From: an uncultured Actinomycetota bacterium
GTDB lineage: Bacteria; Actinomycetota; Nitriliruptoria; Nitriliruptorales; Nitriliruptoraceae
Assembly (NCBI GenBank): GCA_964608935.1
Contig: CAZSQF010000001.1
Coordinates: 1-53,638 of the forward strand
Reading direction: 5' to 3'
Length of the DNA stretch: 53,638 nt
Positions 30,305 to 53,141 of this stretch are shown piece by piece. Below the pieces are notes generated by a model that searched no databases, was not told the DNA's origin, and worked only from the letters and a program-made list of their open reading frames with translations. Numbering within the stretch: the stretch's first letter is position 1; every line of letters begins with the position of its first letter. The position numbers and the translations under genes are program-made.

Positions 30305-31528
30305 ATGGTGCTGATCGACAACTATCGCACAGAGGGCGGGCAAGGGATCACGCGATTCCTGGCGACGGTCCGCTGGGAGGACCGGACACGCGAGCCCTTT
30401 GACGTCAGCTTCGCCGTCCAGGAGCAAGACACGGCTCGTGCCACCCTGAACCCCGACGCGTTTCGGGTTCCGGCGGCGATCGTCGCGCTGCATGACCACG
30501 AACAACGGATCAGTGGCGAAGGGGAACTTTGCCCCTTCCTCCGCGACGGCTTGGAGAACTCGTTCGCTTGGCTCCGGCGTTGGGCGGGTTCGTCGTCGCC
30601 GGGGCCGACGATCGACCTTCCGGTCCGCTGCTCACATCCAGGGGTGGAGACGGCCGCGAGCGGCATGTTGCTGTCCGGCGGCGTGGACTCGATGGCAGCG
30701 CTCGTAGCCAACCACACTGCGTATCCCCATGGACACGAGCGACGTTTCTCGGTCGCGTTCGTAGTCGTGGGCATTCAGCACTACCGGTGGGCGCACTTGG
30801 ACGAGGTCGAGGCTCAACTTGGCGCTGCTCGGAAACAACTGGCCCCCGTGGGGGACGCGACTGGTGTGAATATCGTTCCAGTCGCGACGAATCTGCGCGG
30901 TCTGAACCGGGACAGCTGGTTCTGGAAGTACGAGTTTCAGGGCGCCGCCTTGTCCGGCATCGCGCACCTGTTCGCGACCAGCCTCAGCGATGTGGCGATC
31001 GCCAGCACGTGGCAGATCAGCCACCTCGACCGGTGGGGGTCGCATCCGCTGCTCGATCCTGGTTACGGGACACACTCGCTGCGGATCTGGCATGAACTGG
31101 CGCACCTCGGACGGCTGGAGAAGACCGAGCTGATCGCTCAGCGGCCGGAGTTGCTCCAGCCGTTGAATGTCTGCAACGAGAGGGCGGGAGGCGACCTGAA
31201 CTGCGGCCACTGCGAGAAGTGCGTCCGCACGATGCTCGCGCTCGAATCGATGGGGCAGCTGGGCGAGAGCGAGGCCTTCGCGAGGGTCACGCTCCGGCGA
31301 GACGACCTGCGGGGTATCCGGATCGGCGACCGCGGCCTCGAGGGCGAGTACCTCGAGCTGATAGAACCGCTCCTGCGGGTGGGTCGTCCCGATCTGGCCT
31401 CAGCAATCAGTCGCATGGTTCGGTTCGGCCGACTTCGCAGAAGCCTGCCCGACCGGCTGACTCGGTCCTGGCGACGCGTCGCGCCAACGGCGGTCCGCCA
31501 ATGGCTCCGAACTCCGCGGTTGTCCTGA
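30305..31528 (+). CDS. PP-loop (adenine nucleotide alpha-hydrolase superfamily) ATPase of unknown specificity
   Basis: The SD ggggagggg precedes the ATG. PP-loop motif LLSGGVDSMAAL. QueC-like Cys cluster NCGHCEKCVRT. The roughly 125-aa N-terminal domain has no motif I recognise. Confidence 0.6.
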   Translation: MVLIDNYRTEGGQGITRFLATVRWEDRTREPFDVSFAVQEQDTARATLNPDAFRVPAAIVALHDHEQRISGEGELCPFLRDGLENSFAWLRRWAGSSSPGPTIDLPVRCSHPGVETAASGMLLSGGVDSMAALVANHTAYPHGHERRFSVAFVVVGIQHYRWAHLDEVEAQLGAARKQLAPVGDATGVNIVPVATNLRGLNRDSWFWKYEFQGAALSGIAHLFATSLSDVAIASTWQISHLDRWGSHPLLDPGYGTHSLRIWHELAHLGRLEKTELIAQRPELLQPLNVCNERAGGDLNCGHCEKCVRTMLALESMGQLGESEAFARVTLRRDDLRGIRIGDRGLEGEYLELIEPLLRVGRPDLASAISRMVRFGRLRRSLPDRLTRSWRRVAPTAVRQWLRTPRLS

Positions 31529-31591: not shown

Positions 31592-31831
31592 GTGGATCTC
31601 GACGACGTGATGTCCCTTCTCCAGCAGACGCTGCGACTGGACGTGCCCTTGGACGCGGACACGCCCTTGTTGTCATCGGGGCTCATCGACAGCCTGGGCG
31701 TGGTCGTAGTGGTCACAGAGCTCGAGGCCCGCTACGGCGTCAAGATCGACGAGGCCGACATCGGCGTCGAGCGCTTCGACACGCCAGCCCAGATCTTGGA
31801 CTACCTGTCGTCGCGAACACGTACGGGCTGA
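31592..31831 (+). CDS. Free-standing acyl/peptidyl carrier protein (DltC/ACP-like)
   Basis: 79 aa with a GTG start after gaaagg. Phosphopantetheine-site context LLSSGLIDSLGVVVVVTELE (the DSL motif). Confidence 0.7.
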   Translation: MDLDDVMSLLQQTLRLDVPLDADTPLLSSGLIDSLGVVVVVTELEARYGVKIDEADIGVERFDTPAQILDYLSSRTRTG

Positions 31832-38446: not shown

Positions 38447-38488
38447 GATTGTGCGAAAATACCATCAGATTGTGCGGGTATACCATCG
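38447..38488. repeat. 21-bp imperfect tandem duplication spanning the stop codon of the HAD-like gene
   Basis: gattgtgcgaaaataccatca (38447-38467) and gattgtgcgggtataccatcg (38468-38488), with 17 of 21 positions identical. Confidence 0.85.
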
Positions 38489-40540
38489 GGCGAGCCTGCC
38501 TGTCACATGTCGAGCCGTTCCTGCTGCTCCGAGCACCTTCCGTGCCGGTGGCGAACTCACGAGCCGTGACCCGTCACGCCAGGTGAACCAATCGCCAGGG
38601 AGCGGCCGTCCCATGAGGCGTCGAGCGACGTCGCCCAGTGACCAGCTTTCAGCGAGTGTTCGCACTGCACCCGTACCAAGCGCCTCAAAGGGAAAACTTC
38701 CCCATGCGCGAGCTTCGTCAATGGTGGGTGTCAAGACGAATTGCCGCAGGTTCTCAGTCACCGTCGCTCGCAGACCGGCATGCAGGGCAACGATCTCGCG
38801 GTCGATCACGAGGTCGTCCGTGAAGCAGTCGATCGTCTCGCGCATCAACCTGAACCCCCGAGTTCCTACGAGACCGGAGGGCTGCGTTGCCAGGGTGGGC
38901 TCGACCCGATCTCCTTCACATCGATACCCGATCGTCGTGCCATGATCCGCCGTGCAGAAGACTTCGAGGAAGGGAACCAGTCCCGCGAAGCGCTCGATCC
39001 CGCGGCCGTGCACAGCATCGAAGAGAAAGACCTCAAGCGCCGCACAGCCGGCATCCGTCGCTGACGCAGGCCATGGTTCGGCGCGTTCACGATAAGCCAG
39101 GAAGCCGATGGGGGCCGACTCCTCGACCTGGGCTCGGAACTCGCTGAGGGCGACGAACTGGCTGGCCACGCCGCCGAGATCGACGATGCCGACTCGCCCG
39201 GATGCCAGGAAACCTTCCTGTGCCAGGTACGCCTGGACCTCACGCCGCGCGATCCTCGCGCGACCTCGAATGATGGTGGCGAGGTCATCACGCGTGAGCA
39301 ACTCCATCAGCCGGGTCAGCCCGGAGGTGGTCAGCTGTTCGCTCCAGCGCTCAGGGAAGAATCCGGCGGATTCCAATTCCGTGGCGACTGCCTCGGCGTC
39401 AAGGTTGAGCCGCGCGAGGATCGAGCGTATGGAGCCCTGCGCTCCGTGTGACAGCAACCAAGGAGCCGTCTGTTCGCTCAGTTCGCCAGCTGCCGCAAGA
39501 TTCAAGACTTGTCGGCTACCACAGAGGTACCTGAGATCACAGCCGACTCCGATCCTCTCCGCCAGAACCGTCGCGATCCGCAGCAACTGCTGCCCATCGC
39601 GTGCCAGGAAGTACAGGCGGTCGACCCCATGACGCGATGCCTGCTGGAGAACCCAGAGGACGTACGCCACCAGGAGTGGTCCCGCCACGCCAGCCGTCGT
39701 GTCCCTGACGGCTCGGGACAGCGGATCCGGCGCCGATACCGTGCATCGCGCGAGCCGCGATGCTCCCGCCAGGAGCGACGACAACCCTTCCGTCTCCCAA
39801 CGGCGCGCCTCCAGGTACTCCTCGAAGCGGTTCGGATTGCCGCCCGGGAGATGGCGCGTTGTGATGCCGAGCCGCTTCGCAGGGATGATGTCGACCGACA
39901 GGTCGTTGCCATGGTGCACGACTTCAGCGGCTCGAACATGCTCCAGACGGAGCACCTCCGCGAACAACCGGCCCGTGCTCTTCGCTGCGCCGTGGTGATT
40001 GGAGACGTAGACGTGGTCGCCTGGCCCGAGCACGCCGTGCCTCCTCAACTGCTCCTCGAGGAAAGTGCTCGGTAGGTACGTGTCAGAGACGAAGATGATT
40101 CGATGCCCCGCGGCCCGGGCGCTCTCGACGGCAGCTCGTCCACTCGGCAAGCAACGGAACAGTTCAGCTTCCAGCCGGAGTTCGGACTCGATCATCTGGT
40201 CTCGAACCGCTGAAGTCAATCCGAATGCAGACCCGAACTCGTCGTAGATCTCCTTCAACGTAATATGAGAGTCACGCCCCCCGGCATTCCGAAAGGCGCG
40301 ACGATCGGCCGCCAGCCGATGCCGTGCGAAGGCCTCCGGAGTGCTACGGCCCAGCCCCCTGACCTGGAGCCATCTTCCCAGTAGCAGAAAGACAGCGTGC
40401 GGCGAAGCGACGGAACGGGTGAGAACGGTGTCGAAAACATCGAACGAAGCCACGCTAAGGGGCTCCTTCGTCCTCCGACGACCCACCCAACGAGGCGTGG
40501 GAACCGCTACGAGGTCCGCCCACGCCGGTAGCTTCGCCAT
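38465..40540 (-). CDS. Large HAD-superfamily-like hydrolase (COG5610-type N-domain plus a roughly 450-aa domain of unknown function)
   Basis: ATG at 40538-40540. SFDVFDTVLTR, VSDTYLP, SNHHGAAKSTG and HHGNDLSVD resemble the HAD-like motif series seen in capsule-locus hydrolases. Confidence 0.65.
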   Translation of the reverse strand: MAKLPAWADLVAVPTPRWVGRRRTKEPLSVASFDVFDTVLTRSVASPHAVFLLLGRWLQVRGLGRSTPEAFARHRLAADRRAFRNAGGRDSHITLKEIYDEFGSAFGLTSAVRDQMIESELRLEAELFRCLPSGRAAVESARAAGHRIIFVSDTYLPSTFLEEQLRRHGVLGPGDHVYVSNHHGAAKSTGRLFAEVLRLEHVRAAEVVHHGNDLSVDIIPAKRLGITTRHLPGGNPNRFEEYLEARRWETEGLSSLLAGASRLARCTVSAPDPLSRAVRDTTAGVAGPLLVAYVLWVLQQASRHGVDRLYFLARDGQQLLRIATVLAERIGVGCDLRYLCGSRQVLNLAAAGELSEQTAPWLLSHGAQGSIRSILARLNLDAEAVATELESAGFFPERWSEQLTTSGLTRLMELLTRDDLATIIRGRARIARREVQAYLAQEGFLASGRVGIVDLGGVASQFVALSEFRAQVEESAPIGFLAYRERAEPWPASATDAGCAALEVFLFDAVHGRGIERFAGLVPFLEVFCTADHGTTIGYRCEGDRVEPTLATQPSGLVGTRGFRLMRETIDCFTDDLVIDREIVALHAGLRATVTENLRQFVLTPTIDEARAWGSFPFEALGTGAVRTLAESWSLGDVARRLMGRPLPGDWFTWRDGSRLVSSPPARKVLGAAGTARHVTGRLARWYTRTI

Positions 40541-40952
40541 GACACGGCGCGGACTCCTCACCTCCCCGGCTCCCGGCGGACGAGTACACGCGTTGCCAAC
40601 AAGCGTTCGCCTCCGATCGGACGGAGCAACACGACCAGCGAGCGGCGCCACCAGGAACCCTTCCCCAGTACGAGAAGGCGGCTTCGGCGCGCCCAGCGAC
40701 GTGCACGATGACCCTGTGTCGGGATGGCGATCCGACGAGCGCCGTGTCGAGGCCACACGTGGTAGGCCCCGACCGGCAGCGGTCGTATCTCTCGGCGACG
40801 TCGAGACCATGGTCGCTCCCCATCGACGATCAACACGACCTGCTCGCCGGAATCCTGAGGCGTATGAAGAGAGCGCAAAGATTCCTCCCAGTGGGTCGTC
40901 GAGGGATCAGGTTCGCCGTGGCCGAATGGCCCCGACCAGCCCTCACGCGGTG

Positions 40953-41957
40953 CTACCACGATGGAACCGCCCATGCAGCCCGCTCACGCAGCTGGTCATC
41001 GGACATCAGTGCCGACGCCACGGCCACATACCAGTCAGGCGGGGGGAACGAGGACACGACGGCTCGCTTCACCTGTTCGATCGAGGTCATCAATAGCGCC
41101 CATCCGAGAGGGGCCTCGAACCGCCAGCCCCGCCCGATCGTGTCAGCCAGCGTGCGACCGCACCACGTGTCGACACCCAGAACGCGTGACAAGGCGCCGG
41201 CCGCACCCAACTGCTGACGGTCGCCGACGGATTTAGCCAGCGTCAGCATCAGATAGCACTGGTCGAACCAGGGAGGAAACCGCGAAGACGCTGTCGCCCA
41301 GTCAACGACAGCAATCCCCCGCCGAGTCTGTAGGAGGTTGCCGACGGCGACGTCGCCATGCTGCCAGGTCGGCGGGGTCATGATCCCGGACGCGGCAGCG
41401 GCACTTGTGAATGAAGCGAGCTTGTCGCGATCAGGTGCCTCGAACACCTCATCAGTCGGCAGTCTCATGAACTCGGACAAGCCCGTCCTCGTGGTGTGGG
41501 CATCCCTGGCTGCGCCATAGCCGGCAAGGATGCGACTCCACTCCCCGACACTGCTGACGTAGCGCCTCAGTCGCCGGACGGCTCTTGGCGAACGCGAAGC
41601 CGCCGGGCTGGCAAGTCGCAGCCGACGACCCGGGATAACCGTCATCGCGAGCACCGTCAGCTTCGGCAGGCTCAGAACGCTCAAGGGCTCGGGCACGAGG
41701 TGACGGTGATGTGGCGGCAACAGGTCGCGCACGTCGCCGAGGTTTCGGAACTCACGAACGAGTTCAGCGCCGGCACTTGTGCCTGATCCCAATTTCAGAA
41801 CGGCTCGCGGGCGTGCCGCTCGGTCAGACTGGCGGAATATGAGCATCTGCCCAGGTCGACGGCTCCAGTTCACCACAATGTCGTGACGAGAGGGCGTCTC
41901 ACCCGGGAACCAGATCGACCATCGTTGGTCGCTCCATCGGATCGCCTGGTCAAGCAT
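40953..41957 (-). CDS. APH/choline-kinase-family phosphotransferase
   Basis: Brenner motif HGDVAVGN, followed by IAVVDWATA. Confidence 0.7.
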   Translation of the reverse strand: MLDQAIRWSDQRWSIWFPGETPSRHDIVVNWSRRPGQMLIFRQSDRAARPRAVLKLGSGTSAGAELVREFRNLGDVRDLLPPHHRHLVPEPLSVLSLPKLTVLAMTVIPGRRLRLASPAASRSPRAVRRLRRYVSSVGEWSRILAGYGAARDAHTTRTGLSEFMRLPTDEVFEAPDRDKLASFTSAAAASGIMTPPTWQHGDVAVGNLLQTRRGIAVVDWATASSRFPPWFDQCYLMLTLAKSVGDRQQLGAAGALSRVLGVDTWCGRTLADTIGRGWRFEAPLGWALLMTSIEQVKRAVVSSFPPPDWYVAVASALMSDDQLRERAAWAVPSW

Positions 41958-43192: not shown

Positions 43193-44332
43193 TCATGCCG
43201 CGGTCTTCTTCTTGGTGATCGTGCTGGTGTCGCTGGACGGTGGCGGGTCGATGCCGAGCTCCACGCGCAGCAGGTGCAGCTGGTGGCGCTCCACCTCGGA
43301 AACCGACACTCGCGACCAGCGGTCGGCGCAGCGGATGAGGGTGGCGAACACCAGCTTCATCGCGGAGCGTTCGTCGGTGAACCGGGGGATGATCTTGGTG
43401 CGGCGTTCCTCGACGAAGGAGCGTTCGGCGAGGTTGGTGGTGCGCACGTTGATGCGATGCCGGTGCGGGATGCGGTGGATGGCCAGCAGCGCGTCGAGGT
43501 CGTCGGCCAGGCAGTCCATCGCCGCGGGGAAGGTCCGCGCGAAGCGGTTGATGACCTGATCGGCGGTCGCGCGTGCCTGGTCGAGGGTGGCGGCGTCCCG
43601 GATGGTGCGCACATGGGCCATCACCTCGGGCGCGGCGTCGTCAGGCAGCTTGGCGCGGATGTTGGAAAGCCGGTGGAACCAGCAGCGGATCCTGATCGAG
43701 TCGGGCCACACGCTGCCGATGGCGTTGGTCAGTCCGGGTGCCCCGTCCGCGGTCACACTGGTCGGGGCCCGCAAGCCCCGGGCGACCATGTGGCGGAAGA
43801 ACTCGGTCCGCGCCTGCTCGGATCCCTTGTTGCCCACCGCCAGGTGCAGCAGATGCTTGAACCCGCCCGAGTCGATGCCCCAGGCCACCAGCACCGCTTC
43901 CTTCGCACCGTGCCGGCGCAGCGACTCGAACACCGCATCGACGAACAGATACTCGACCTCGATATCGGACAGATCCCGCGCGCAAAACGCCTGGAACTGC
44001 TCCCAGATCCGATCGGTGATCTCGCTCACCGCCGACTTGGAGATCTCTCCGCTCTCGCGGACGCGGCGGACGATCCCGGTTACCCTCAGGCCGTCCCATT
44101 GGCCGCGACGAAGGTCGGATGCGGACGCAGGGCGGCGCGCCACGGTCGAGCCGGACCGGAGCACGTGCACGAGTGGAACAGACTGCTCCTGCAAGAGCTG
44201 CACATCCAGAGGGAATCGAGGCAACGAGCTGTTGCCATCGTAGTGTTCGTAGCAAGCGTCCACTCGGGAGGGAACTACTGGAGTCTGGTCGGGCTGAGGC
44301 CACCATGGCGCCTTCATCGACGAGGTTGCCAT
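43193..44332 (-). mobile_element. IS256-family (mutator-type) transposase gene, probably a 5'-truncated or degenerate IS remnant
   Basis: SKSAVSEITDRIWEQFQAFCARDLSDIEVEYLFVDAVF, VLVAWGI, ADGAPGL, RCWFHRLSN and RTTNLAERSFVEERR are IS256-type DDE landmarks. The N-terminus is about 40-60 aa shorter than I expect. I could not find terminal inverted repeats. Confidence 0.8.
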
Positions 44333-44399
44333 GGAGGGTTGACACCTTCGAGGCGACGGAACGGGTCTTCGTTCCGGTCGAGATGGAGGGGATTGATTG

Positions 44400-46058
44400 A
44401 TGCCGGGTGCCTTCTACACGGCTCTCGAAACGGCTGCCTCGACCCGCGCCGACGATCCGGCGTTCACCTTCTTCGACACCGATCACCAGACGACGACCTA
44501 CACGTTCGGGGGGCTGTTGTCGGCCGCCCAGGACGTCGCTCAGCGGCTCCGCGAGGAAGGTCTCGACGATCGGAGCCGCCCCCTCGGCCTGCTCCTCAGC
44601 TCCCAAGAGGAGCAGATCGTGCACTATCTCGGAGCCCTTTGTGCCGGTGCGGTGCCGTCAATCCTGACGCCACCGAACCGCAAGCTCAACCGGGAGTACT
44701 ACGCGGTGACGATGATGGAGGTCTTGAGACGCTCCCGGTTCCGTGCGCTCGTGACCGACCTGGACGACGTCCCATTCTCGGTTCCTGCCTATGGGCCGGG
44801 GAGCATCACGCCGACACCCGCCCCGGAACCTGATGGCCCAGTGCCTGAAAACGGCGAACCGTTGGACGCGTCGTTCCTCCAGTTCTCGTCGGGGACGACC
44901 GGGATCAAACGCGGCGTACTGGTCCGGGACGAGGCCGTGCTCGCGCAGCTGCATGCCTACGCGGCTGCGCTCGGGCTGACCGACGAGGATCGGATCGTGT
45001 CCTGGCTGCCCCTCTACCACGATATGGGCTTCATCGCCTGCCTCAACATGCCGCTGCTCTTCGGCGTGCACACGATCATGATCGATCCCATCACTTGGGT
45101 CACGCGGCCATCGCTGCTGCTTCGTGCCGCTTCGCGTTTCGGCGGGACCCTGTCGTGGAACCCCAACTTCGCCTATGCCTTCATGGCGCAACGGATCCGC
45201 GATAGCGAACTCGACAGTGTGGACCTTTCCATGCTCCGGGGCCTGGTCAACTGCTCGGAGCCGGTGACCCACGCAAGCCAAGAGCAGTTTCGCGCGCGGT
45301 TCGCGCCTCACGGGCTCCGCGACGACGTGTTCCTGGGCTGCTACGCCATGGCGGAGACGACCTTCGCCCTGACCCACGGCGCGGGGTCGGACCCGGACGC
45401 TCTGGACGAGATCGGTCCCGTCGCCAGTGCCCGCGCCACGGACCGCGACCCATACGTTTCGGTTGGAAGACCGATCGATGGCGTCGAACTCGAGGTGATG
45501 AAGCAGGAGGGCGAGCCCTGCCGTGACCGTGAGATCGGGGAGTTGTGGGTGCGTTCCCCGTTCAACTTCACCGGCTACTACGGAGAGCCGGAGGCGACGG
45601 CCGAGGTGTTCGCCGGTGACTGGTACCGGACCGGTGACCTGGGGTATCGGATCGGGGACAGGTTCTTCATCACCGGACGCTGCAAGGACGTGCTCATAGT
45701 CGGCGGGGTGAACGTGTTCCCCAACGACCTCGAAGACGTGGTCGCACGGGTCGACGCGGTGATCCCGGGGCGCGTGGCTGCGTTCGCCGAGTTTGACACC
45801 CGGATGCAGACCGAGCAGATCACGATCCTGGCCGAATCGGAGCTGAAGGACGAGGCAGCGCACGAGGCGGTTTTGCGCATCCGGCAGTGGGTGCAGGCGT
45901 CATTCGAGCTGGCCTCCTTCGAGGTCCGCCTGGTGCCCCCGGGATGGCTCGTCAAGAGCTCGTCCGGCAAGATCGCTCGATCGGCCAACCGGGACAAGTG
46001 GGACCGTGAGCGGCCGCACGCCGTGGCAGCCAGCAGGAGCACGCCGCAATCCGGATGA
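44400..46058 (+). CDS. ANL-superfamily adenylating enzyme (fatty-acyl-AMP / acyl-carrier ligase-like)
   Basis: The SD ggagggg lies 8 nt before the ATG. FLQFSSGTTGIKRGV, YHDMGF, YRTGDLGY and SSGKIAR are AMP-binding core motifs. Confidence 0.85.
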   Translation: MPGAFYTALETAASTRADDPAFTFFDTDHQTTTYTFGGLLSAAQDVAQRLREEGLDDRSRPLGLLLSSQEEQIVHYLGALCAGAVPSILTPPNRKLNREYYAVTMMEVLRRSRFRALVTDLDDVPFSVPAYGPGSITPTPAPEPDGPVPENGEPLDASFLQFSSGTTGIKRGVLVRDEAVLAQLHAYAAALGLTDEDRIVSWLPLYHDMGFIACLNMPLLFGVHTIMIDPITWVTRPSLLLRAASRFGGTLSWNPNFAYAFMAQRIRDSELDSVDLSMLRGLVNCSEPVTHASQEQFRARFAPHGLRDDVFLGCYAMAETTFALTHGAGSDPDALDEIGPVASARATDRDPYVSVGRPIDGVELEVMKQEGEPCRDREIGELWVRSPFNFTGYYGEPEATAEVFAGDWYRTGDLGYRIGDRFFITGRCKDVLIVGGVNVFPNDLEDVVARVDAVIPGRVAAFAEFDTRMQTEQITILAESELKDEAAHEAVLRIRQWVQASFELASFEVRLVPPGWLVKSSSGKIARSANRDKWDRERPHAVAASRSTPQSG

Positions 46059-46372: not shown

Positions 46373-47785
46373 ATGCATGGAGGCGGCACGGAGTTGAGCG
46401 ATCTGGGTACCGCCGAGACCTTCGTCCTCGTCATAGCGGGGCTCGCTGCCCTTGCCGTTCTTCGAACTATCCTCGTCCGAGAAACCGACCCCGTCATCGC
46501 AAGGCTCATCGCCTTTGGTCTGTTGGCGAAACTGACGGGTTCCATGGCCCGCTATACCGTCATGGCTGGTCTCTACGACGGCCGTGGCGACTTCATGCGG
46601 TATTTCTCGAATGGTGTCGAGATCGCCAGGCAGATCCGGTTGGGCTCGTTGCCGGACCAGGCCCGGAGCACCGGGACGCCCTTCATGGACTTTCTCACGG
46701 GTGTCGTGTACGTCGTCGTCCCAAACCAACTCTGGGTCGGGTTCGTCGTCTTCAGCCTGTTGTCGTTCGTCGGTGCCTACCTGTTCCTACAGGCGTTCCG
46801 GCTCGCCATGCCCGAGGGCAATCATCGACGTTACGCCGCGCTCATCTTTTTTCTCCCGACGATGGTGTTTTGGCCGTCGAGCATCGGCAAGGACGCGTGG
46901 CTCGTCTTCACACTGGGTGTCGCTGCTTACGGTGGGAGCCGTGTCCTGAGCCGGGCGAGGTTTGGCTACCTCATCGCAGCACTGGGTGGAGCGGGTGCAT
47001 TCGCCGTACGCCCGCACATGGGCGCGTTGTTCGCAGTCAGTCTCGCGGCCGCATATGTGCTGCGGTTCCGCGACACCACCGTTCAGCGTGGCGTCGCGGC
47101 GTGGGTGTTGGGACTCGTGATCGTAGGCGCCGGTGCTGGCTACGCGGCGGCCAACTTTGGCGACGAACTACCCCGCGACGAGTCAGTCGAGGGAACCACC
47201 ACCGACCAGATCGCCGCGGAGACAGCGCGGCGCACCGAGACGGGCGACTCGGAGTTCGAGAGCCGGCCCGTGCGTGGCCTCAGCGACTTCTGGCATGCGG
47301 CGGTGACGGTGCCGTTCCGGCCGTTCCCGACAGAGGGACATAATCGTCAGGCGCAGCTGGCCGGTCTGGAAGGGCTCCTGCTGCTACTGCTCTTGATCAT
47401 CTCGATCCCTCGGCTGCGATCGCTGCCCCGCCAACTCTTGCGACGTCCCTACCTCGCCCTGGCCTCTGCCTACTGCGTCGGTTTCATCATCGCGTTCTCG
47501 AACGTGGGTAACTTCGGGATCCTGACCCGACAACGATCCCAACTCCTGCCGTTCCTCGCAGTCCTGCTCGCCCTACCGAAGCTGCAGACGGCCCTGGGGT
47601 CTCGGCATCGGCGTGGGCGCCGACCGCTGATCGTTGGAGCGTCCCGAACCGACGAGCAGCACGACGACGCACCAGCACGCACCGAGCACCCTGACCTTGC
47701 AGCACCGGTGGAGCTCGTGGTCGACCTGCCGGCCGGTGCAATGGACGAAGAGGCCGCGGACGCACCCAAACGAGACGGCACGTAA
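46373..47785 (+). CDS. Polytopic membrane protein, putative glycan polymerase/ligase (Wzy-like)
   Basis: About 10 hydrophobic segments, with one large hydrophilic loop (DELPRDESVEG...FRPFPTEGHNRQ). Confidence 0.55.
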   Translation: MHGGGTELSDLGTAETFVLVIAGLAALAVLRTILVRETDPVIARLIAFGLLAKLTGSMARYTVMAGLYDGRGDFMRYFSNGVEIARQIRLGSLPDQARSTGTPFMDFLTGVVYVVVPNQLWVGFVVFSLLSFVGAYLFLQAFRLAMPEGNHRRYAALIFFLPTMVFWPSSIGKDAWLVFTLGVAAYGGSRVLSRARFGYLIAALGGAGAFAVRPHMGALFAVSLAAAYVLRFRDTTVQRGVAAWVLGLVIVGAGAGYAAANFGDELPRDESVEGTTTDQIAAETARRTETGDSEFESRPVRGLSDFWHAAVTVPFRPFPTEGHNRQAQLAGLEGLLLLLLLIISIPRLRSLPRQLLRRPYLALASAYCVGFIIAFSNVGNFGILTRQRSQLLPFLAVLLALPKLQTALGSRHRRGRRPLIVGASRTDEQHDDAPARTEHPDLAAPVELVVDLPAGAMDEEAADAPKRDGT

Positions 47786-47813: not shown

Positions 47814-48533
47814 TCAGCGCCCCCGCATCCAATGGCGTAGCTCACCGGCCTCGACGATTCCGGCCCCATCGGGCAACCGGTCGAGCAGCTCGGCCATGGT
47901 TCCCAGCAGCGCACGACCATCCAGATCCTGCCGGTTGCGGACCCGGCTCATTGCTCGCACGAGACGGCCTGCCGGTGTCACCGGACGGTCAGACAGCGTC
48001 CAGCTGGCGATTGGAAACCGCCCTGCTGGTCGCGCCGTGTATCCGCCGCGGTCAAGGAGGTCGAACTCCCCGAGGAGCTCCTGCATCGAAGTGGCCCACT
48101 GCAACCGGTTGCCGGGAATCTCGATTGCAACGTCGTGGGCATCCAGCGTGGCGCTTGGTCGATCCACCAGCTGGAAGCCTTCCTGCCGCCAGCGTCGCTC
48201 ATCGTCGGCCGCCCGGGTCCGTCGGGCCGGGGGCATGAGATGGGCTCGCCCGTTCTCCAACAGCACGGTGGCGTCGAGTTGGGGTCGCTCGCTGGTCTCG
48301 CCAGCCTCGAAGGCGTCGACGACATCCCAGATGGCCTCGAGGACCCGGCGCAGAGATTCGGTCCGCAGCATCCGTCGGTGACCGAGGTACAGCCGATGCA
48401 GCTCCTGCGGCCCGCCGTCGCCCGGTGACGCGAGATAAGCCGACAGGTTCGCTGGCGGATCCGCCTCAGGCACATGACGCTCGGCGAACGCCGCCGTCAC
48501 CAGCTCGCCAGCCGCCAGGTTGTTCACGCGCAC
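47814..48533 (-). CDS. Hypothetical protein, possibly a P-loop-less HprK-related pseudo-kinase
   Basis: Cys-free, 239 aa, with a GTG start. ATVLLENGRAHLMPPARRTRAA...GFQLVDRPSATLD resembles the HPr-kinase-like core by eye, but with no GxxGxGKS. The frame stays open and protein-like for 23 more codons upstream, to the stop at 48603-48605, with no canonical start there. Confidence 0.45.
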   Translation of the reverse strand: MRVNNLAAGELVTAAFAERHVPEADPPANLSAYLASPGDGGPQELHRLYLGHRRMLRTESLRRVLEAIWDVVDAFEAGETSERPQLDATVLLENGRAHLMPPARRTRAADDERRWRQEGFQLVDRPSATLDAHDVAIEIPGNRLQWATSMQELLGEFDLLDRGGYTARPAGRFPIASWTLSDRPVTPAGRLVRAMSRVRNRQDLDGRALLGTMAELLDRLPDGAGIVEAGELRHWMRGR

Positions 48534-48648
48534 GCCGAGGACGTGGCTGCCGGCACGCAGCGGGACGGTGACCGCCCAGCCTAGGCGGTCGACCTCGGTC
48601 CGTCATATGGACGGCGGCACCGCCAGGTAGCGCGGCGCGGGCGGCAGG

Positions 48649-48996
48649 TCAGCAGTCCGCATCGTCGTCCTGTTGGGTCTCTTCCGACTGCCCAGCGACG
48701 CCGGCGAGCACGCCCGCGCGGCCGAGCTCGCGGACCATCTCCAGGACGTCGTGTTCTACGGTGTTGCGCGATGCGCCGAACGCCTCCGCGAGGTCGTCGG
48801 CCATCGCGCGGATCGTCGTCTCGCCGTCGAACAGGGCGCACACGACGGTGCCGATCGCATCCAGCTGGTGCAGGTGGCCGCTCGACTCGTCGTAGAGCAC
48901 CGCCTCGTCGGCGACCTCCACCATCACCATCGCTTCGTGCAGATACGGGACGAAGTCGCTGGTGAGCAGGTCCGGGTCGTGCAGGTCGATCGTCAC
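48649..48996 (-). CDS. PqqD-family (RRE-like) protein
   Basis: AVLYDESSGHLHQLDAIGTVVCALFDGETTIRAMADDLAEAFGASRNTVEHDVLEMVRELGRAGVL fits the PqqD pattern. The GTG start overlaps the GT4 stop (GTGA at 48993-48996). The tail is acidic. Confidence 0.7.
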   Translation of the reverse strand: MTIDLHDPDLLTSDFVPYLHEAMVMVEVADEAVLYDESSGHLHQLDAIGTVVCALFDGETTIRAMADDLAEAFGASRNTVEHDVLEMVRELGRAGVLAGVAGQSEETQQDDDADC

Positions 48997-50108
48997 GCCA
49001 ACACCTCGTCGTAGATGGCCTCGATGCGCCGCGCCGCGCGACCGATCGAGAACCGCTCCTCCACGTGCCGGACGGCCAGGGTTGCCATCTTGGCACGTCG
49101 ATCGGTGTCGAACAGCAGGTCGCGGATCGCTTCCGCCAGCACGTGGGGGTCCCCGGGAGGGACGAGGACACCGTGGCGGCCGTCGTCGACGGCCTCCGGG
49201 ATCCCGCCGACCCGGGTGGCCACGCACGGCACCCCCGCTGCCATCGCCTCCAGCAGAGAAATGGGCAGCCCCTCGTACCGGGAGCCGAGCACGAACAGGT
49301 CCAGGGCGGGCAGCAGCTCGGTCACGTCGTCGCGCAAGCCGAGGAACCGGACGTGGCCGTCGAGGCCACGCGCCCGTACGTCGGCCTGGATCTGCTCCTC
49401 CAGGGGCCCCGTGCCGATGAGGAGGACGACCATGTCCGGGATGTCGCCCCGAAGCTGGTCCACCGCCGCCATCAGCCCGGCGTGGTCCTTCTTGGGCGTG
49501 AAGTTGGCGACCGTCCCGATGACCGGAGCCGCTGCCGGAACGTCGAGCAGCGATCGCGCGTGCCTGCGCGCTTGCGAGCCGCGAGCCACCGTGTCCGCGG
49601 CGACGCCGTGGAGCAGCGTCTCGACCGGCGGTCCAGGTCGCCGTCCGGTCCACCGCAGCGCTGCGATGGACGACGCGACACCGTCCGACACGGCGATGAC
49701 GGCCGTGTTGCGCCGGTAGGTCGCCGCGTTGATGGCGCGAGTGCCCCAGCGGTAGCGCTCCCACACGTTGTGCTCGGTGTGGACGAACGGGGTGTCACGG
49801 GCTGCCAGCACCCGGGCCGCGGCAGCCGGAACCGGGCTGTGGGTGTGGACGAGGTCGTAGCCGCGCTCGTGCAGCAGCCGGCGCAGCCGCAGGACCCAGC
49901 GCGGGTCGACGGTGCGACGGGCCTCGAGACAGATCGCCGGGATGTCGTGGGCATCGAGCTCGGCCACCAGTGCATTCTTCCACGGCAGCAGGTAGGCGAC
50001 CTCGACGTCGAAGCGGCTCCGGTCGAGCTTCGGCGCGACCAGCGTCAGCAGCCGCTCCGCCCCGCCGAGTCCGAGGCCCTTCATCAGCCACAGCACCCGC
50101 GTGGCCAT
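48993..50108 (-). CDS. Glycosyltransferase family 4
   Basis: MATRVLWLMKGLGLGGAERL, VANFTPKKD and GSRYEGLPISLLEAMAAGVPCVATRVGG. The ATG at 50106-50108 shares one base with the upstream stop. Confidence 0.85.
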   Translation of the reverse strand: MATRVLWLMKGLGLGGAERLLTLVAPKLDRSRFDVEVAYLLPWKNALVAELDAHDIPAICLEARRTVDPRWVLRLRRLLHERGYDLVHTHSPVPAAAARVLAARDTPFVHTEHNVWERYRWGTRAINAATYRRNTAVIAVSDGVASSIAALRWTGRRPGPPVETLLHGVAADTVARGSQARRHARSLLDVPAAAPVIGTVANFTPKKDHAGLMAAVDQLRGDIPDMVVLLIGTGPLEEQIQADVRARGLDGHVRFLGLRDDVTELLPALDLFVLGSRYEGLPISLLEAMAAGVPCVATRVGGIPEAVDDGRHGVLVPPGDPHVLAEAIRDLLFDTDRRAKMATLAVRHVEERFSIGRAARRIEAIYDEVLA

Positions 50109-51220
50109 CAGCGTGTCCTGCCGCCACGCAGCGATCTGAGGCCACGACGGATCCAGGCCACGCCGGCATCGCCGCCGCGCACCGCCGTAAAGTCGCGTGA
50201 CGGCAGCGTCACGGCTCGGAGGAAGCGGACCTTGGCGCCGACGCCGTCGAGATAGGGCAGGGACGCGACCACCTTGGCGGCGTAGGTGCGGTTGTCGCCG
50301 ATGTAGCTCGCGATGGCGCGCCGCTCGTGGCGGGTCGGGCGGTGGTCGGCAACCGCGTCGACGATGGGGCCGGCGAGGGGATAGCCCAAGAGATCGCGAC
50401 ACAGCTCCAACGCTCGTGCCAGCACCGCATGGGCTCGCCAGCGCCGGCTCAGCTCGATCACGCGGTCTGGGTCGCGGTCGCCGTTGGTCAGCATCTGCGC
50501 CACGTCACGCACGCTCCCGTATCGGGGCCGGGGATCACCCAGCGCCGCGTGGTAGCACGCGTGCAGCAGGCGGGTGTCGGGCCCGAGGGCTTGCAGCCGA
50601 CGGCCGCCGAGGTCGAACGGCTGGGCGGAGCGGAACAGCTCGTCGAGCTCGATCGCGAGGCCGAAGCTGCCGAACACGAGGCTGCGGTGGGTGTCCAGCT
50701 CGTCCCCCGCGGTCCCCTTGAGGGTGGCGCCCTTGCCAAACCGACGGTCGAACCCGGGGCTCGGCTCTGGCACCGGCCGCACGTAGCCGAGGCCCAGCAG
50801 GATGTCGAGCGCATGCTCGAACTGAGCCGACGGGAACAGCAGGTCGACGTCGCCGAACGGACGGAGCGCCGGGTCCGGATAGTCGAGGTGCGCGACCGCG
50901 GTGCCCTTGAGCACGACGAACGGCACATCGGCATGGTCGAGCGCGCCTGCCACGTCCAGCAGGCGCCGCTCGAGCTGCACCGCCGCGGCGCACGCGGTCA
51001 GGTGCAGCTCGTCCACCGCCTCGCGCTGTTCGCCCGTCACCGGTAGTACACCGTCGGTGACCGCCGCGTGGAGGAAACCCGCCAGCCGCTGGGCCCGGGC
51101 CCGTCGCACGAGGTCCTTCCAGGCAGGCTCCGGAAGCGGGGCATCCGCCAACCTGTCGCGCTGCCCGGGAAGGCCGAAGGCTGCGAGCCATCGCACGATC
51201 GGAGGCGCGGGATGGGTCAT
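50108..51220 (-). CDS. Uncharacterised nucleotidyltransferase family protein (NTP_transf_5-like)
   Basis: VVLKGTAVAHLDYPDPALRPFGDVDLLFPSAQFEHALDILLGLGY is the family hallmark as I recall it. Confidence 0.7.
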   Translation of the reverse strand: MTHPAPPIVRWLAAFGLPGQRDRLADAPLPEPAWKDLVRRARAQRLAGFLHAAVTDGVLPVTGEQREAVDELHLTACAAAVQLERRLLDVAGALDHADVPFVVLKGTAVAHLDYPDPALRPFGDVDLLFPSAQFEHALDILLGLGYVRPVPEPSPGFDRRFGKGATLKGTAGDELDTHRSLVFGSFGLAIELDELFRSAQPFDLGGRRLQALGPDTRLLHACYHAALGDPRPRYGSVRDVAQMLTNGDRDPDRVIELSRRWRAHAVLARALELCRDLLGYPLAGPIVDAVADHRPTRHERRAIASYIGDNRTYAAKVVASLPYLDGVGAKVRFLRAVTLPSRDFTAVRGGDAGVAWIRRGLRSLRGGRTR

Positions 51221-51483
51221 CCAACCTCCAGCGCGCCAGCGGCGAGCAGGTCCTCCAGGAACGGCTGTAGCTCCGCGCCGACCTGGTCGGCCTCGACCCC
51301 GTAGGCCGCTGCCACCGCGTCCGCGACAGCGGATTCGTCCATGGGTTCGGTCAGCAGCTGCCAGATGGCATACGCGGTGCCCGTGAGCAGCAGGTGGTCG
51401 TCACGTCCGGGCGCGAGGACGATGGCCCGCTGCCCGGATCGCCGCCACAGCGCCCGTGCGTCGCGACGCCACACCCGGGTCAC
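51217..51483 (-). CDS. PqqD-family (RRE-like) protein
   Basis: 88 aa. AIVLAPGRDDHLLLTGTAYAIWQLLTEPMDESAVADAVAAAYGVEADQVGAELQPFLEDLLAAGAL. It overlaps both neighbours (GTGA at 51480-51483 and ATGA at 51217-51220). Confidence 0.7.
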   Translation of the reverse strand: MTRVWRRDARALWRRSGQRAIVLAPGRDDHLLLTGTAYAIWQLLTEPMDESAVADAVAAAYGVEADQVGAELQPFLEDLLAAGALEVG

Positions 51484-53141
51484 GGCTGGACCGTCGTGCC
51501 CCGTGCTGCGGCCCGTCGGAGGGGCTCGTAGTAGCCGTAGACGCGGGCCGCCTCCCCGCCGACGAGGACGATGCCGGCCACATCAGCGTTGAGGCGGGCC
51601 AGCTTCTCGGTGGTGAGGCGGGCCTGTTCCAGGGGCGTGCGCCCGCTCCGCGAAACTACCAGGACAGCGTCGATCGCCGGGATCAGCGCGGTGGCTTCGT
51701 TGGTCGCCAGCAACGGTCCCGTGTCGAAGATGACGACGTCCGCCAACTCCTTCGTCAGCTCGACCAGGCGCTTCCCGTCTGCGACGAGCCAGGGCAATGT
51801 GACGCCGTGGGCTCCAGCGCTGATCAGCGACACCCGAGGGACCGCGGTCGCCTGCTTCAGCATCTCGAGATCTGGAGATTCGAACTCCTGCAGCTGGTGC
51901 CGACCCTGTTCGACCGTGACGCCCAGCAGCTCGTGAACCGAGGCGCGACGAAAGTCACAGTCCACGATGAGGACGGTCTGCCCCGCTTCAGCGAAGCTCG
52001 CCGCCAGGTTCGCCACGACCGTCGACTTGCCTTCCGCGGCGGTCGCCGAGGTGACCAGGAGCGTCGGAGGGGGCGTCGGCGTGCTCACCTGTGAGGCGGC
52101 TCCAACCATGCCATTACTGGTCGGCGTCTCACCGTGCAGGTGCCAGCGCGGATTGAACTGGATCGCGAGCCGCAAGCCGCGGAACGCCTCTGCCGCGTCC
52201 GAGGCCGGCTCCTCCCTGACCGGCAGTCTGACACGATCACGCTCGCGCTTCGGCCGATGCGGAATCTCGGCGACAACGGGCAGGCCGAAGGCATCTTCCG
52301 CGTCCGTGCGTGTCCGGATCCGGACATCGAAGCGGTCGACGGCGAAGACGAGGCCGATCCCAAGAATGGCGGCGAGCAGGACCGCAAGGGCGAAGCGTGG
52401 CCCCGGCCGCTCCGGCACCTCGAAGACCGCTTCGGTGGGCGGCTCGGCCGGAACCGCGACAGGCTGTTGCAGGCTGTCGAAGGTGGGTTCCTGGCCGAGG
52501 TCGATCAGGCTGAGGTCGCGGATCTCGTTCTGCACCTGCCCGTACTGGTCGACGAGGACGCTGAGCTCGGATTCGACCAGCCGGCGGTCGAGGCTGCCCT
52601 CCGGCAGCTGGCCGATCTGCTCCTCGAGCTCGCGGACGCGGACGTCGATCGTGGCCGCACGATCGGTTGCTCGCTCGAGACGCTGTGTGGCCGCGGCGTC
52701 GGCACGCTCGTTGAAGTGGTCGATGACCACCGTCGCATACGCGTTTGCGAGCTCGGTCGCCAGGTCCGGGTCCGGATGGTGGGCGCGTATCTCCAGCGTT
52801 CCCAGCCCGGCACTGGCCTCGAGCTCCACCGAGCGGATGTCGCCCGTCGTGATGCGGTCGTCCACGCGCGCGGCCACGCCGTCGACCACCTCGCCCTGAC
52901 GGGCGAGCATCATCACGAGCTCGAGGTTCTCCGTCGCCGTCGACTCGCGGGCACGGATCAGCACATGGCTGGCCTGGTAGGACACGCCCGGGTCGGCCTG
53001 CACCATCCCGTCGCGGTCCGACTCGGTGTCAGGCAGCGTGGCCCAGCCGACCACCAGGCCCAGGGCGACGGCTCCGGCCACGATCGGCCACCACCGTCGC
53101 AACGGCGTGAGGTAGCGCGCCAGGGGATTCGCGTCGGTCAT
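51480..53141 (-). CDS. Polysaccharide co-polymerase / tyrosine autokinase (Wzz domain plus BY-kinase)
   Basis: Two TM segments flank a coiled-coil periplasmic-type domain. Walker A TSATAAEGKST, Walker A' LIVDCDFRR, Walker B VVIFDTGP. C-terminal Tyr cluster VYGYYEP. Confidence 0.9.
   Translation of the reverse strand: MTDANPLARYLTPLRRWWPIVAGAVALGLVVGWATLPDTESDRDGMVQADPGVSYQASHVLIRARESTATENLELVMMLARQGEVVDGVAARVDDRITTGDIRSVELEASAGLGTLEIRAHHPDPDLATELANAYATVVIDHFNERADAAATQRLERATDRAATIDVRVRELEEQIGQLPEGSLDRRLVESELSVLVDQYGQVQNEIRDLSLIDLGQEPTFDSLQQPVAVPAEPPTEAVFEVPERPGPRFALAVLLAAILGIGLVFAVDRFDVRIRTRTDAEDAFGLPVVAEIPHRPKRERDRVRLPVREEPASDAAEAFRGLRLAIQFNPRWHLHGETPTSNGMVGAASQVSTPTPPPTLLVTSATAAEGKSTVVANLAASFAEAGQTVLIVDCDFRRASVHELLGVTVEQGRHQLQEFESPDLEMLKQATAVPRVSLISAGAHGVTLPWLVADGKRLVELTKELADVVIFDTGPLLATNEATALIPAIDAVLVVSRSGRTPLEQARLTTEKLARLNADVAGIVLVGGEAARVYGYYEPLRRAAARGTTVQP

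Follow-up and report, generated by a model that had tools for sequence, protein, structure and literature searches.

RiPP recognition elements and a P-loop-less HprK paralogue, probably a selenoprotein, in a polysaccharide polymerisation/export operon of Actinomycetota

Introduction

The recognition elements (RREs) of RiPPs, which are peptides made by the ribosome and then modified, serve as beacons for peptide natural-product clusters. What, then, would such elements be doing in an operon for the polymerisation and export of a surface polysaccharide, where no RiPP core enzyme accompanies them? This question is raised by a contig of 53,638 nucleotides (CAZSQF010000001.1, assembly GCA_964608935.1) from an uncultured bacterium of the Nitriliruptoraceae (Actinomycetota). 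The whole stretch analysed, which is the entire 53.6-kb contig, is here called the window; it ends inside a CapD-like gene, and the region upstream of that gene lies outside our view. On the minus strand, between 47.8 and 53.6 kb, the genes follow each other in the order CapD-like, a Wzz/bacterial tyrosine kinase (BY-kinase) fusion of 553 residues, a PqqD-like protein of 88 residues, an NTP_transf_5 enzyme of 370 residues, a GT4 glycosyltransferase of 371 residues, a second PqqD-like protein of 115 residues and a gene that we call X (Table 1). An earlier, sequence-only reading had described here an orphan RRE cassette built into a tyrosine kinase and glycosyltransferase operon, with a possible P-loop-less HprK-like protein at its end. 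The best explanation for what we found is that the system represents an actinobacterial, polysaccharide-embedded version of a tailoring module composed of RREs, an HprK-like protein and a nucleotidyltransferase, which has so far been known from the clusters of lasso peptides and from the uncharacterised HPr-rel-A cassette.

A co-translated operon with one RRE per enzyme

The order of the first six genes had been read correctly, as had the five start/stop overlaps that join them (ATGA 53138-53141, GTGA 51480-51483, ATGA 51217-51220, TGATG 50106-50110 and GTGA 48993-48996). A sixth overlap, of 14 nt, is found between the stop of the 115-residue PqqD-like gene and the revised start of X (ATG 48662; see below), and the seven genes form a single co-translated operon. 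Its G+C content at third codon positions is 0.83-0.91, and the G+C at the codon positions is consistent with genuine genes.

The assignment of the PqqD-like and NTP_transf_5 proteins, made in the sequence-only reading, was borne out by profile searches with hidden Markov models (HMMs; PF05402 E-values 8e-12 and 1e-12, PF14907 9e-35). The two PqqD-like proteins reach 45.7 and 48.5 bits with PF05402, above its gathering score of 23.4. A PqqD gene stands immediately upstream of the NTP_transf_5 gene in at least 25 loci, and the two are fused in one homologue (P0101); a third PqqD gene immediately precedes CapD in four loci (L001, L061, L091 and L093); and both PqqD-X and PqqD-Redoxin-X fusions exist. 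The 115-residue protein of the window is 63% identical to a PqqD-like protein of 130 residues in locus L001, which is in frame with X. Each PqqD-like RRE pairs with one enzyme, to which it is fused in some genomes. The C-terminal tail of the BY-kinase was also considered as a conserved RRE ligand, and it was discarded, as beyond its YGYY motif the conservation is weak.

Pfam scans of the approximately 45 open reading frames (ORFs) of the window found no radical SAM enzyme, Asn-synthase-like cyclase, transglutaminase-like protease or YcaO protein, as had been claimed, and a tblastn search of the window with the cyclase-like protein of locus L001 returned nothing. The description of the cassette as an orphan is correct in part. 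The window, which stops within CapD, shows neither cyclase nor lasso-type precursor; in relatives, a P-loop HprK-related kinase is found close by and, in L001, a lasso-like cluster adjoins the cassette.

Conservation of the cassette in Actinomycetota

When species-representative genomes were scanned with the NTP_transf_5 protein, 54 loci were recovered, every one of them from Actinomycetota, and the mapping of the window proteins and home-made HMMs onto these loci revealed two architectures. The cassette proved to be conserved beside BY-kinase and glycosyltransferase genes in many Actinomycetota, as the sequence-only reading would lead one to expect: the succession BY-kinase, PqqD, NTP_transf_5 is kept in at least 17 loci from Nitriliruptoria, Acidimicrobiia and other Actinomycetota. 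In the Type I core, found in Nitriliruptoria, Acidimicrobiia and other metagenome-assembled genomes, the order is [PqqD-CapD]-BY-kinase-PqqD-NTP_transf_5-(GT4)-polytopic membrane protein, and as a rule either HprK-related kinase-PqqD-X or GT4-PqqD-X comes with it. Four contigs (L057, L061, L093 and L094) have exactly the gene order of the window, and the complete genome of a cultured species, Egicoccus halophilus (L091), comes near to it, with an HprK-related kinase, PqqD, LuxR, PqqD-CapD-BY-kinase-PqqD-NTP_transf_5-GT4 and then an ATP-binding cassette (ABC) exporter, three GT4s, PglD and Bac_transf. In this genome (CP036250.1) the region spans about 1.757-1.775 Mb, and it encodes, among others, an HprK-related kinase of 309 residues and PqqD-like proteins of 89 and 119 residues. 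HprK-related kinases with the Walker A P-loop are close by in L091, L094, L001 and the class A loci. For the BY-kinase of the window itself no other record was found, and a metagenome scan gave a single close relative.

The Type II (class B) architecture is found in 25 loci, mostly of Pseudonocardiaceae, whose NTP_transf_5 proteins are 39-45% identical to that of the window. These loci contain one or two ORFs of about 45 residues (e.g., MRQPYEAPEITVLGSVTELTQATLFGSDTDNLTWVLPIFGDNTFS) whose leader is of the lasso type (YxxPxLxxxG...T) and which invariably end in Ser, together with a 379-residue protein with only the Asn_synthase domain, an ABC exporter, an HprK-like kinase, PqqD and exopolysaccharide (EPS) genes such as GT4, GT2, Wzy_C, heparinase-like and beta-helix proteins. 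Type II loci lie in the range L004-L055 (e.g., L015, 12933-13253), and no transglutaminase-like protease was seen in them.

A small secreted protein with an LPXTG-like anchor is encoded between CapD and a DUF4012 gene in two loci (L001, 14138-14452; L094, 2707-3129); at the cell surface, this protein might be a partner of the glycan system.

Gene X belongs to a family of P-loop-less HprK paralogues

X gave no match in Pfam, NCBIfam or a PDB sequence-profile search, its BLASTP comparison with HprK-related kinases was not significant, and a word-indexed search recovered only four homologues. After iteration over the ORFs of the loci and large databases, the family amounted to 1,306 representative clusters (E<=1e-3; clustered at 50% identity). 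In 68 representatives the X domain lacks any NCBIfam model match, and none matches TIGR04352 or TIGR04355. The relationship with HprK required a profile-profile comparison with a deep alignment: hhalign of 160 X sequences against 33 HprK-related kinases from sister loci gave a probability of 97% (E 1.2e-10) over 254 colinear columns, while a shallower alignment gave 75%. In this comparison, the G-x-x-G-K-T-T loop of the kinases aligns with PPARRTRAADDERRW in the X of the window, and no Walker A P-loop (GxxGxGKS/T) was found in any of 145 representatives of the family (0/145). The Asp of the LV(A)DD-like strand is retained in X as the near-invariant D151. The suspicion that the 239-residue protein of the sequence-only reading was HprK-like and P-loop-less is thus upheld: X is a paralogue of the HprK-related kinases that has lost the ATP-binding P-loop. 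By the same comparisons, its family is a large and unannotated one of P-loop-less HprK paralogues, habitually fused to PqqD.

The structural support for this relationship is partial. The AlphaFold2 (AF2) model of X has a mean predicted local distance difference test score (pLDDT) of 91.3 and a predicted template modelling score (pTM) of 0.89. ATP-dependent phosphoenolpyruvate carboxykinase (ATP-PEPCK) and HprK/P have one common fold, and these two enzymes make up most of the top ranks of a Foldseek search of the model against the PDB; nothing in that search was significant, however, with a best E-value of 0.07.

Three members of the family (P0266, P0270 and P0273) have the arrangement PqqD-thioredoxin-like (AhpC/TSA, Redoxin)-X, with NCBIfam matches to the ResA-like WAxxUGC selenoprotein model. 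Such thioredoxin-like fusions hint at a redox role for the family.

An in-frame TGA codon in X

The sequence-only reading had placed the last gene at 47814-48533, after a gap of 115 nt. This ORF is only the 3′ 85% of the gene: the frame extends upstream to ATG 48662 through an in-frame TGA, a probable selenocysteine (Sec) codon that had been overlooked. Homologues of X start with M/V-x-E-V-DRLGW, some 20 residues upstream of the GTG at 48533, and the window encodes these residues after the TGA. A frameshift at the 5′ end of X was considered and ruled out, as a DNA alignment of the PqqD/X junction in seven loci is free of indels; where a GTG usually stands there is a CGG, and the frame runs upstream through the TGA. 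Before the TGA, the X frame encodes 19 residues (MRTADLPPAPRYLAVPPSI, from ATG 48662), with a conserved (E/A)PRYLAVPPS(T/I) segment in which changes are mostly synonymous. In locus L001 the PqqD, the tail, the TGA and X all lie in one frame. Whether or not the TGA encodes Sec, the true X gene is 47814-48662.

Twelve loci, which belong to at least four lineages, have the TGA at the corresponding site; besides the window, loci with a TGA-type X are L001, L036, L047/48, L052-54, L057, L061, L093 and L094. The in-frame TGA between PqqD and X is present also in Acidimicrobiales (L047/L048), in Acidimicrobiia (L036) and in a further lineage (L052-54). In this last group the site forms a U-G-S-C motif, where Cys-type relatives have CxxC. 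Gene callers either split the TGA forms (PqqD + X) or truncate X.

Is this codon an ordinary stop? In that case, the 19-codon upstream ORF would be a micro-ORF for translational coupling, the start of X would lie immediately past this ORF or else at GTG 48533, unless X is decaying, and there would be no selenoprotein. Some observations fit such an explanation, as a GTG directly follows the TGA in four of the seven close loci, no Rfam SECIS (selenocysteine insertion sequence) model matches the hairpin that follows the codon, that hairpin is modestly unusual in several loci, and no Sec machinery (selA, selB, selC or selD) is visible on the window contig, which carries no tRNA. By contrast, an ordinary stop is difficult to reconcile with its being TGA, across four lineages, in all 11 loci where the codon was read, and with the next codon being CGG, GGC or GGG in seven of them, where no start is possible. 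The tail upstream of the TGA evolves as coding sequence in the X frame, and a start at 48533 would remove the first beta-hairpin of X, which is conserved and confidently modelled. Additionally, Cys occupies exactly the TGA position, five residues before the D of DxLxW, in 16 of 18 N-terminally complete homologues, within a motif [ST]-x-[C/U]. Unfused homologues of the Cys type share the start of X (P0172, MSAEAPPEPRYLPVPATGC-ARQS-DRIGW; P0223, ..FRYVPVPPSTC-QSMI-DQMSW).

The hairpin begins 2 nt past the TGA. In the window it has a minimum free energy of -32.9 kcal/mol (z -2.2), within the top 0.6% of local 42-nt windows, and its stem is kept across six related loci with GU-compatible changes only; the rare Leu codon CTA is retained inside the stem, and the third codon position varies in the loop. 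The hairpins that other lineages form at this site differ from it; they rank within 2-34% of local windows and are modestly unusual, so that a strongly unusual hairpin is confined to the group of the window. On balance, we consider it likely that the TGA of X is read as Sec, and improbable that it is an ordinary stop. From these alignments, the PqqD-linked X proteins probably constitute a new selenoprotein family.

The NTP_transf_5 enzyme

The NTP_transf_5 protein of the window scores 120.9 bits with PF14907. K105-G106, R120, D124-x-D126, D176-x-H178 and an LHACYHAALG block are invariant across 52 homologues, and the enzyme retains a complete Pol-beta-type active site. Its AF2 model (pLDDT 92.8) has Foldseek matches, with E-values from 1e-5 to 1e-2, to MenT1, the lincosamide nucleotidyltransferase LnuA, ANT(2'')-Ia, TM1012 and FKRP; for MenT1, LnuA and ANT(2'') they are 1e-5 to 1e-3. 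These proteins, of which FKRP is a ribitol-phosphate transferase, move NMP (nucleoside monophosphate) or an NDP (nucleoside diphosphate)-activated phospho-group onto hydroxyl acceptors.

Relationship to known systems

In lasso peptide clusters, homologues of HPr kinase place a phosphate on the C-terminal Ser of the precursor, and one or two hexoses are added to this phosphate by the nucleotidyltransferase PsmN (PMC8498205, PMC11912497); clusters with such kinase/nucleotidyltransferase tailoring often also hold glycosyltransferases (PMC7533575). The tailoring set of the paeninodin and pseudomycoidin clusters (B1 RRE, PadeK/PsmK and PsmN) comprises the same three protein types as the window, namely a PqqD-like RRE, an HprK-family protein and an "uncharacterised nucleotidyltransferase" (PMC8498205, PMC7533575, PMC11912497), and the NTP_transf_5 of the window has the above-mentioned homologues, 39-45% identical, that adjoin lasso-like Ser-ending precursors. 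Unlike these clusters, the window lacks a precursor, a cyclase and a leader protease, its genes are translationally coupled to BY-kinase, GT4 and CapD, it has two RREs (three in relatives), one per enzyme, and its HprK-family member has no P-loop and carries a Sec/Cys motif. The 115-residue PqqD-like protein scores 39.8 bits with the lasso B1 model NF033530, below the cutoff of 70.

The sequence-only reading had also proposed a divergent version of the HPr-rel-A system (TIGR04352 HprK_rel_A, TIGR04353 PqqD_rel_X and TIGR04355 HprK_rel_B). Like the window type, this system is uncharacterised and includes a PqqD-family chaperone and two HprK-related paralogues. A co-located nucleotidyltransferase is a defining feature of it, and in the window such an enzyme adjoins PqqD (PF14907 8.9e-35). 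The scores, however, remain far below the cutoffs: with TIGR04353, 22.5 bits for the 88-residue and 23.2 bits for the 115-residue protein (E ~1e-4; cutoff 35), and with TIGR04352, 44-77 bits for the kinases of sister loci (1e-11 to 1e-21; cutoff 200). TIGR04352 and TIGR04355 have no match in the window, and X matches none of the three models. The window type further differs from HPr-rel-A in its actinobacterial host, its embedding in a BY-kinase operon and its probable Sec. Judging by these profiles, the cassette is of the same kind as HPr-rel-A, which is as far as the earlier proposal can be sustained, and not a member of it.

With HprK/P and ATP-dependent PEPCK, its only Foldseek neighbours, X shares the colinearity with the HprK-related kinases and D151. 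It differs from both in the lack of a Walker A motif in the family members examined, in its non-significant structural matches and in being fused to or paired with PqqD and, sometimes, a thioredoxin-like domain.

The remaining likenesses concern the BY-kinase and the TGA. As in BY-kinase systems of the Wzc/CapAB type, a single protein joins a Wzz-like transmembrane (TM) region to a tyrosine autokinase that has a P-loop and, at its C terminus, a Tyr cluster; relatives have a low-molecular-weight phosphatase, and the locus holds an initiating Bac_transf, glycosyltransferases and an ABC exporter. The features of a BY-kinase and class 2 polysaccharide co-polymerase (PCP-2) are present, with two TM segments, Walker A (AAEGKST), A′ and B motifs (among the further motifs, VDCDFRR and VVIFDTGP), the YGYY Tyr cluster and domain matches to TIGR01007 and TIGR03018. 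In our literature search, no BY-kinase operon described with RRE, NTP_transf_5 or HprK-like genes was found. As for bacterial selenoproteins such as FdhF and the thioredoxin-like UxxC proteins, X resembles them in the in-frame TGA aligned with Cys, in a candidate SECIS hairpin just 3′ of the UGA whose apical loop is approximately 20 nt downstream, and in the UxxC/CxxC motifs and Redoxin fusions of some family members; it differs in the missing Rfam SECIS match, and a PqqD-linked pseudo-HprK was not found in the papers searched. Nor did the literature searches yield any paper that connects PqqD or RREs to EPS or BY-kinase operons, to PF14907 or to selenoproteins, or anything relevant on HPr-rel-A.

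Proposed role and alternatives

In the reading that we favour, RREs would guide the phospho- or glycosyl-phospho modification of a polypeptide, and this modification would be coupled, in a chemical or a physical way, to the assembly of the glycan, with the BY-kinase in control. Any reading has to account at once for protein types that are those of the lasso module, for one RRE per enzyme, for nearest relatives that flank Ser-ending precursors and for the fact that all the loci are polysaccharide loci; we judge the chances of the favoured one of being right or wrong to be evenly balanced. In this scheme, the RREs would hold a polypeptide, and a Ser/Thr hydroxyl of it would be phosphorylated by an HprK-related kinase with a P-loop, such as relatives usually have close by, or perhaps by some other kinase. 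The nucleotidyltransferase-fold enzyme would then add a nucleotide-activated group (a sugar or sugar-phosphate), much as PsmK and PsmN act on the C-terminal Ser of pseudomycoidin, and GT4 and the rest of the locus would extend the added group or join it to the exported glycan. X would not be a kinase; by means of its Sec or Cys, it would serve as a subunit for the binding of peptide or phosphate, or for redox chemistry. The candidates for the substrate are X itself, through its RYLxVPPS-x-U tail, and a peptide whose gene lies elsewhere. In a bolder version, which we regard as doubtful, the product would be a covalent polypeptide-phosphoglycan conjugate: on the polypeptide held by the RREs (maybe the X tail, RYLxVPP-[ST]-x-[Sec/Cys]), an HprK-type kinase, NTP_transf_5 and GT4 would build a sugar attached through a phosphodiester. 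With this sugar as its primer, cap or anchor, the polymer would be exported under the control of the BY-kinase, and the pseudo-HprK, as a new selenoprotein family, would give the catalytic or attachment residue.

Several points weigh against the favoured scheme. A lasso-leader regular expression, a clustering of small ORFs across 19 loci and a leader-motif scan of partner proteins gave no precursor in the window or in window-type loci, and the 53.6-kb contig has no P-loop HprK-related kinase. The likeness of the NTP_transf_5 to PsmN is one of literature description only; RRE-peptide binding and the chemistry of NTP_transf_5 and X are predicted roles; the lasso-type precursors beside EPS genes in Pseudonocardiaceae could be mere adjacency; and the PqqD-like domains could be protein-protein adaptors instead. 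This last idea can be extended into a model without any free peptide, in which the PqqD-like proteins would bind leader-like tails of their partners (e.g., the N-terminal RYLxVPPS-x-U of X) and assemble NTP_transf_5, X, CapD and BY-kinase into a complex that regulates or decorates the glycan, the nucleotidyltransferase and X acting on sugar or lipid-linked intermediates. The absence of a precursor gene and the presence of one PqqD for each of CapD, NTP_transf_5 and X would be expected of such a complex; the conserved tail of X is, in fused homologues, the PqqD-X linker, and the structural neighbours of NTP_transf_5 include modifiers of sugars and small molecules (ANT(2''), LnuA and FKRP). Nevertheless, the closest relatives of this NTP_transf_5 co-occur with bona fide Ser-ending precursors and, to our knowledge, all characterised PqqD-like RREs bind peptide substrates, so that we hold the adaptor model to be rather unlikely.

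Another possibility is that the cassette acts in trans, modifying a lasso-type or other ribosomal peptide encoded elsewhere, and that it shares a locus with EPS genes without being linked chemically to the polysaccharide. The EPS cassette of L001 is directly preceded, on its upstream side, by a lasso-like cluster. Besides a 46-residue ORF with a terminal Ser, this cluster encodes an Asn-synthase-like protein (134 bits with NF033535), two PqqD proteins, an HprK-related kinase, an ABC transporter and a second NTP_transf_5; as the window contig stops in CapD, the equivalent region is beyond view there. Against such an explanation, the RRE and nucleotidyltransferase genes are tied to BY-kinase and GT4 by start/stop overlaps, a coupling that is conserved across classes of Actinomycetota, and the 6-10 kb upstream of CapD in L091 and L093 contain neither cyclase nor precursor. 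We give tailoring in trans a small probability, and RRE-guided modification coupled to glycan assembly remains the scheme that we prefer.

Features of the locus

Table 1. Coordinates of the operon, of the elements within X and of the convergent neighbour in the window.
Feature	Coordinates	Strand	Evidence and remarks
CapD-like polysaccharide biosynthesis protein (UDP-sugar 4,6-dehydratase type), 3′ part, cut by the contig end	53138..53638	-	PF02719 Polysacc_synt_2 1.3e-38; stop overlaps the BY-kinase start (ATGA)
Wzz-type co-polymerase/BY-kinase fusion, 553 aa	51480..53141	-	TIGR03018 4e-25, TIGR01007 3e-22, AAA_31/CbiA/ParA
PqqD-like RRE protein, 88 aa	51217..51483	-	PF05402 8.2e-12; translational coupling on both sides, with BY-kinase (upstream) and with NTP_transf_5 (downstream)
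NTP_transf_5 nucleotidyltransferase-fold enzyme, 370 aa	50108..51220	-	PF14907 8.9e-35
GT4 glycosyltransferase, 371 aa	48993..50108	-	Glycos_transf_1 3e-37, Glyco_transf_4 6e-20
Second PqqD-like RRE protein, 115 aa, partner of X	48649..48996	-	PF05402 1.1e-12
Gene X, revised, 282 codons	47814..48662	-	N-terminal tail MRTADLPPAPRYLAVPPSI, in-frame TGA, predicted P-loop-less HprK-related (PEPCK-like fold) domain
Candidate Sec codon, in-frame TGA	48603..48605	-	alignment with the conserved Cys of homologues
SECIS-like candidate hairpin	48563..48601	-	begins 2 nt past the TGA; core stem GACCGCCUA/UGGGCGGUC
Polytopic membrane protein, 470 aa, convergent, maybe Wzy-like	46373..47785	+	conserved neighbour of the cassette

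The best NCBIfam match of the GT4 is the PEP-CTERM stp2 type, under the cutoff of that model. The 470-residue membrane protein has no match in Pfam or NCBIfam, and its homologues flank the cassette in L003, L019, L025-27, L030, L032, L041, L044, L056, L057, L061, L091 and L093.

Outside the operon, the window is taken up by a single large locus for a surface polysaccharide, with Bac_transf, a PglD-like acetyltransferase, a GNAT protein, two UDP-glucose dehydrogenases, several epimerases, GT4 and GT2 glycosyltransferases, an ABC exporter, a sugar-transfer ATP-grasp protein and a carrier protein with a fatty-acyl-AMP ligase. The carrier-protein-like ORF, of 79 residues and with a GLIDSLG motif (31592-31831, +), lies inside the glycan locus, as do the fatty-acyl-AMP ligase (44397-46058, +) and an unassigned 407-residue protein (30305-31528, +), and the three suggest that the polymer is acylated or aminoacylated. 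The 79-residue ORF had been considered as a precursor peptide, and this was rejected, as it is a carrier protein. A Mutator-family transposase is encoded at 43193-44332 (-), and the G+C content is 0.62-0.66 between 32 and 48 kb and 0.70-0.75 elsewhere, which gives this stretch the look of a mosaic or of a recent acquisition. Additionally, a 781-residue protein (38465-40810, -), which has no Pfam match and in which a DxDxT (HAD-like) motif is seen by eye, adjoins an APH-family phosphotransferase-like protein (40953-41957, -).

Significance

Although the component types are known, the conserved embedding in a polymerisation/export operon, the layout of one RRE per enzyme, the large unannotated family of pseudo-HprK proteins and its Sec/Cys motif look new. 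RREs are found within a polysaccharide polymerisation/export operon, one per enzyme and with no RiPP core enzyme, across several actinobacterial classes, and the cultured Egicoccus halophilus makes the system testable. It is plausible that a polypeptide is linked here to glycan assembly. If the module acts on a polypeptide, ribosomal peptide chemistry would feed surface-glycan assembly in these bacteria, and the products may include a peptide-primed or peptide-capped polymer, or the system may constitute a route for protein phosphoglycosylation.

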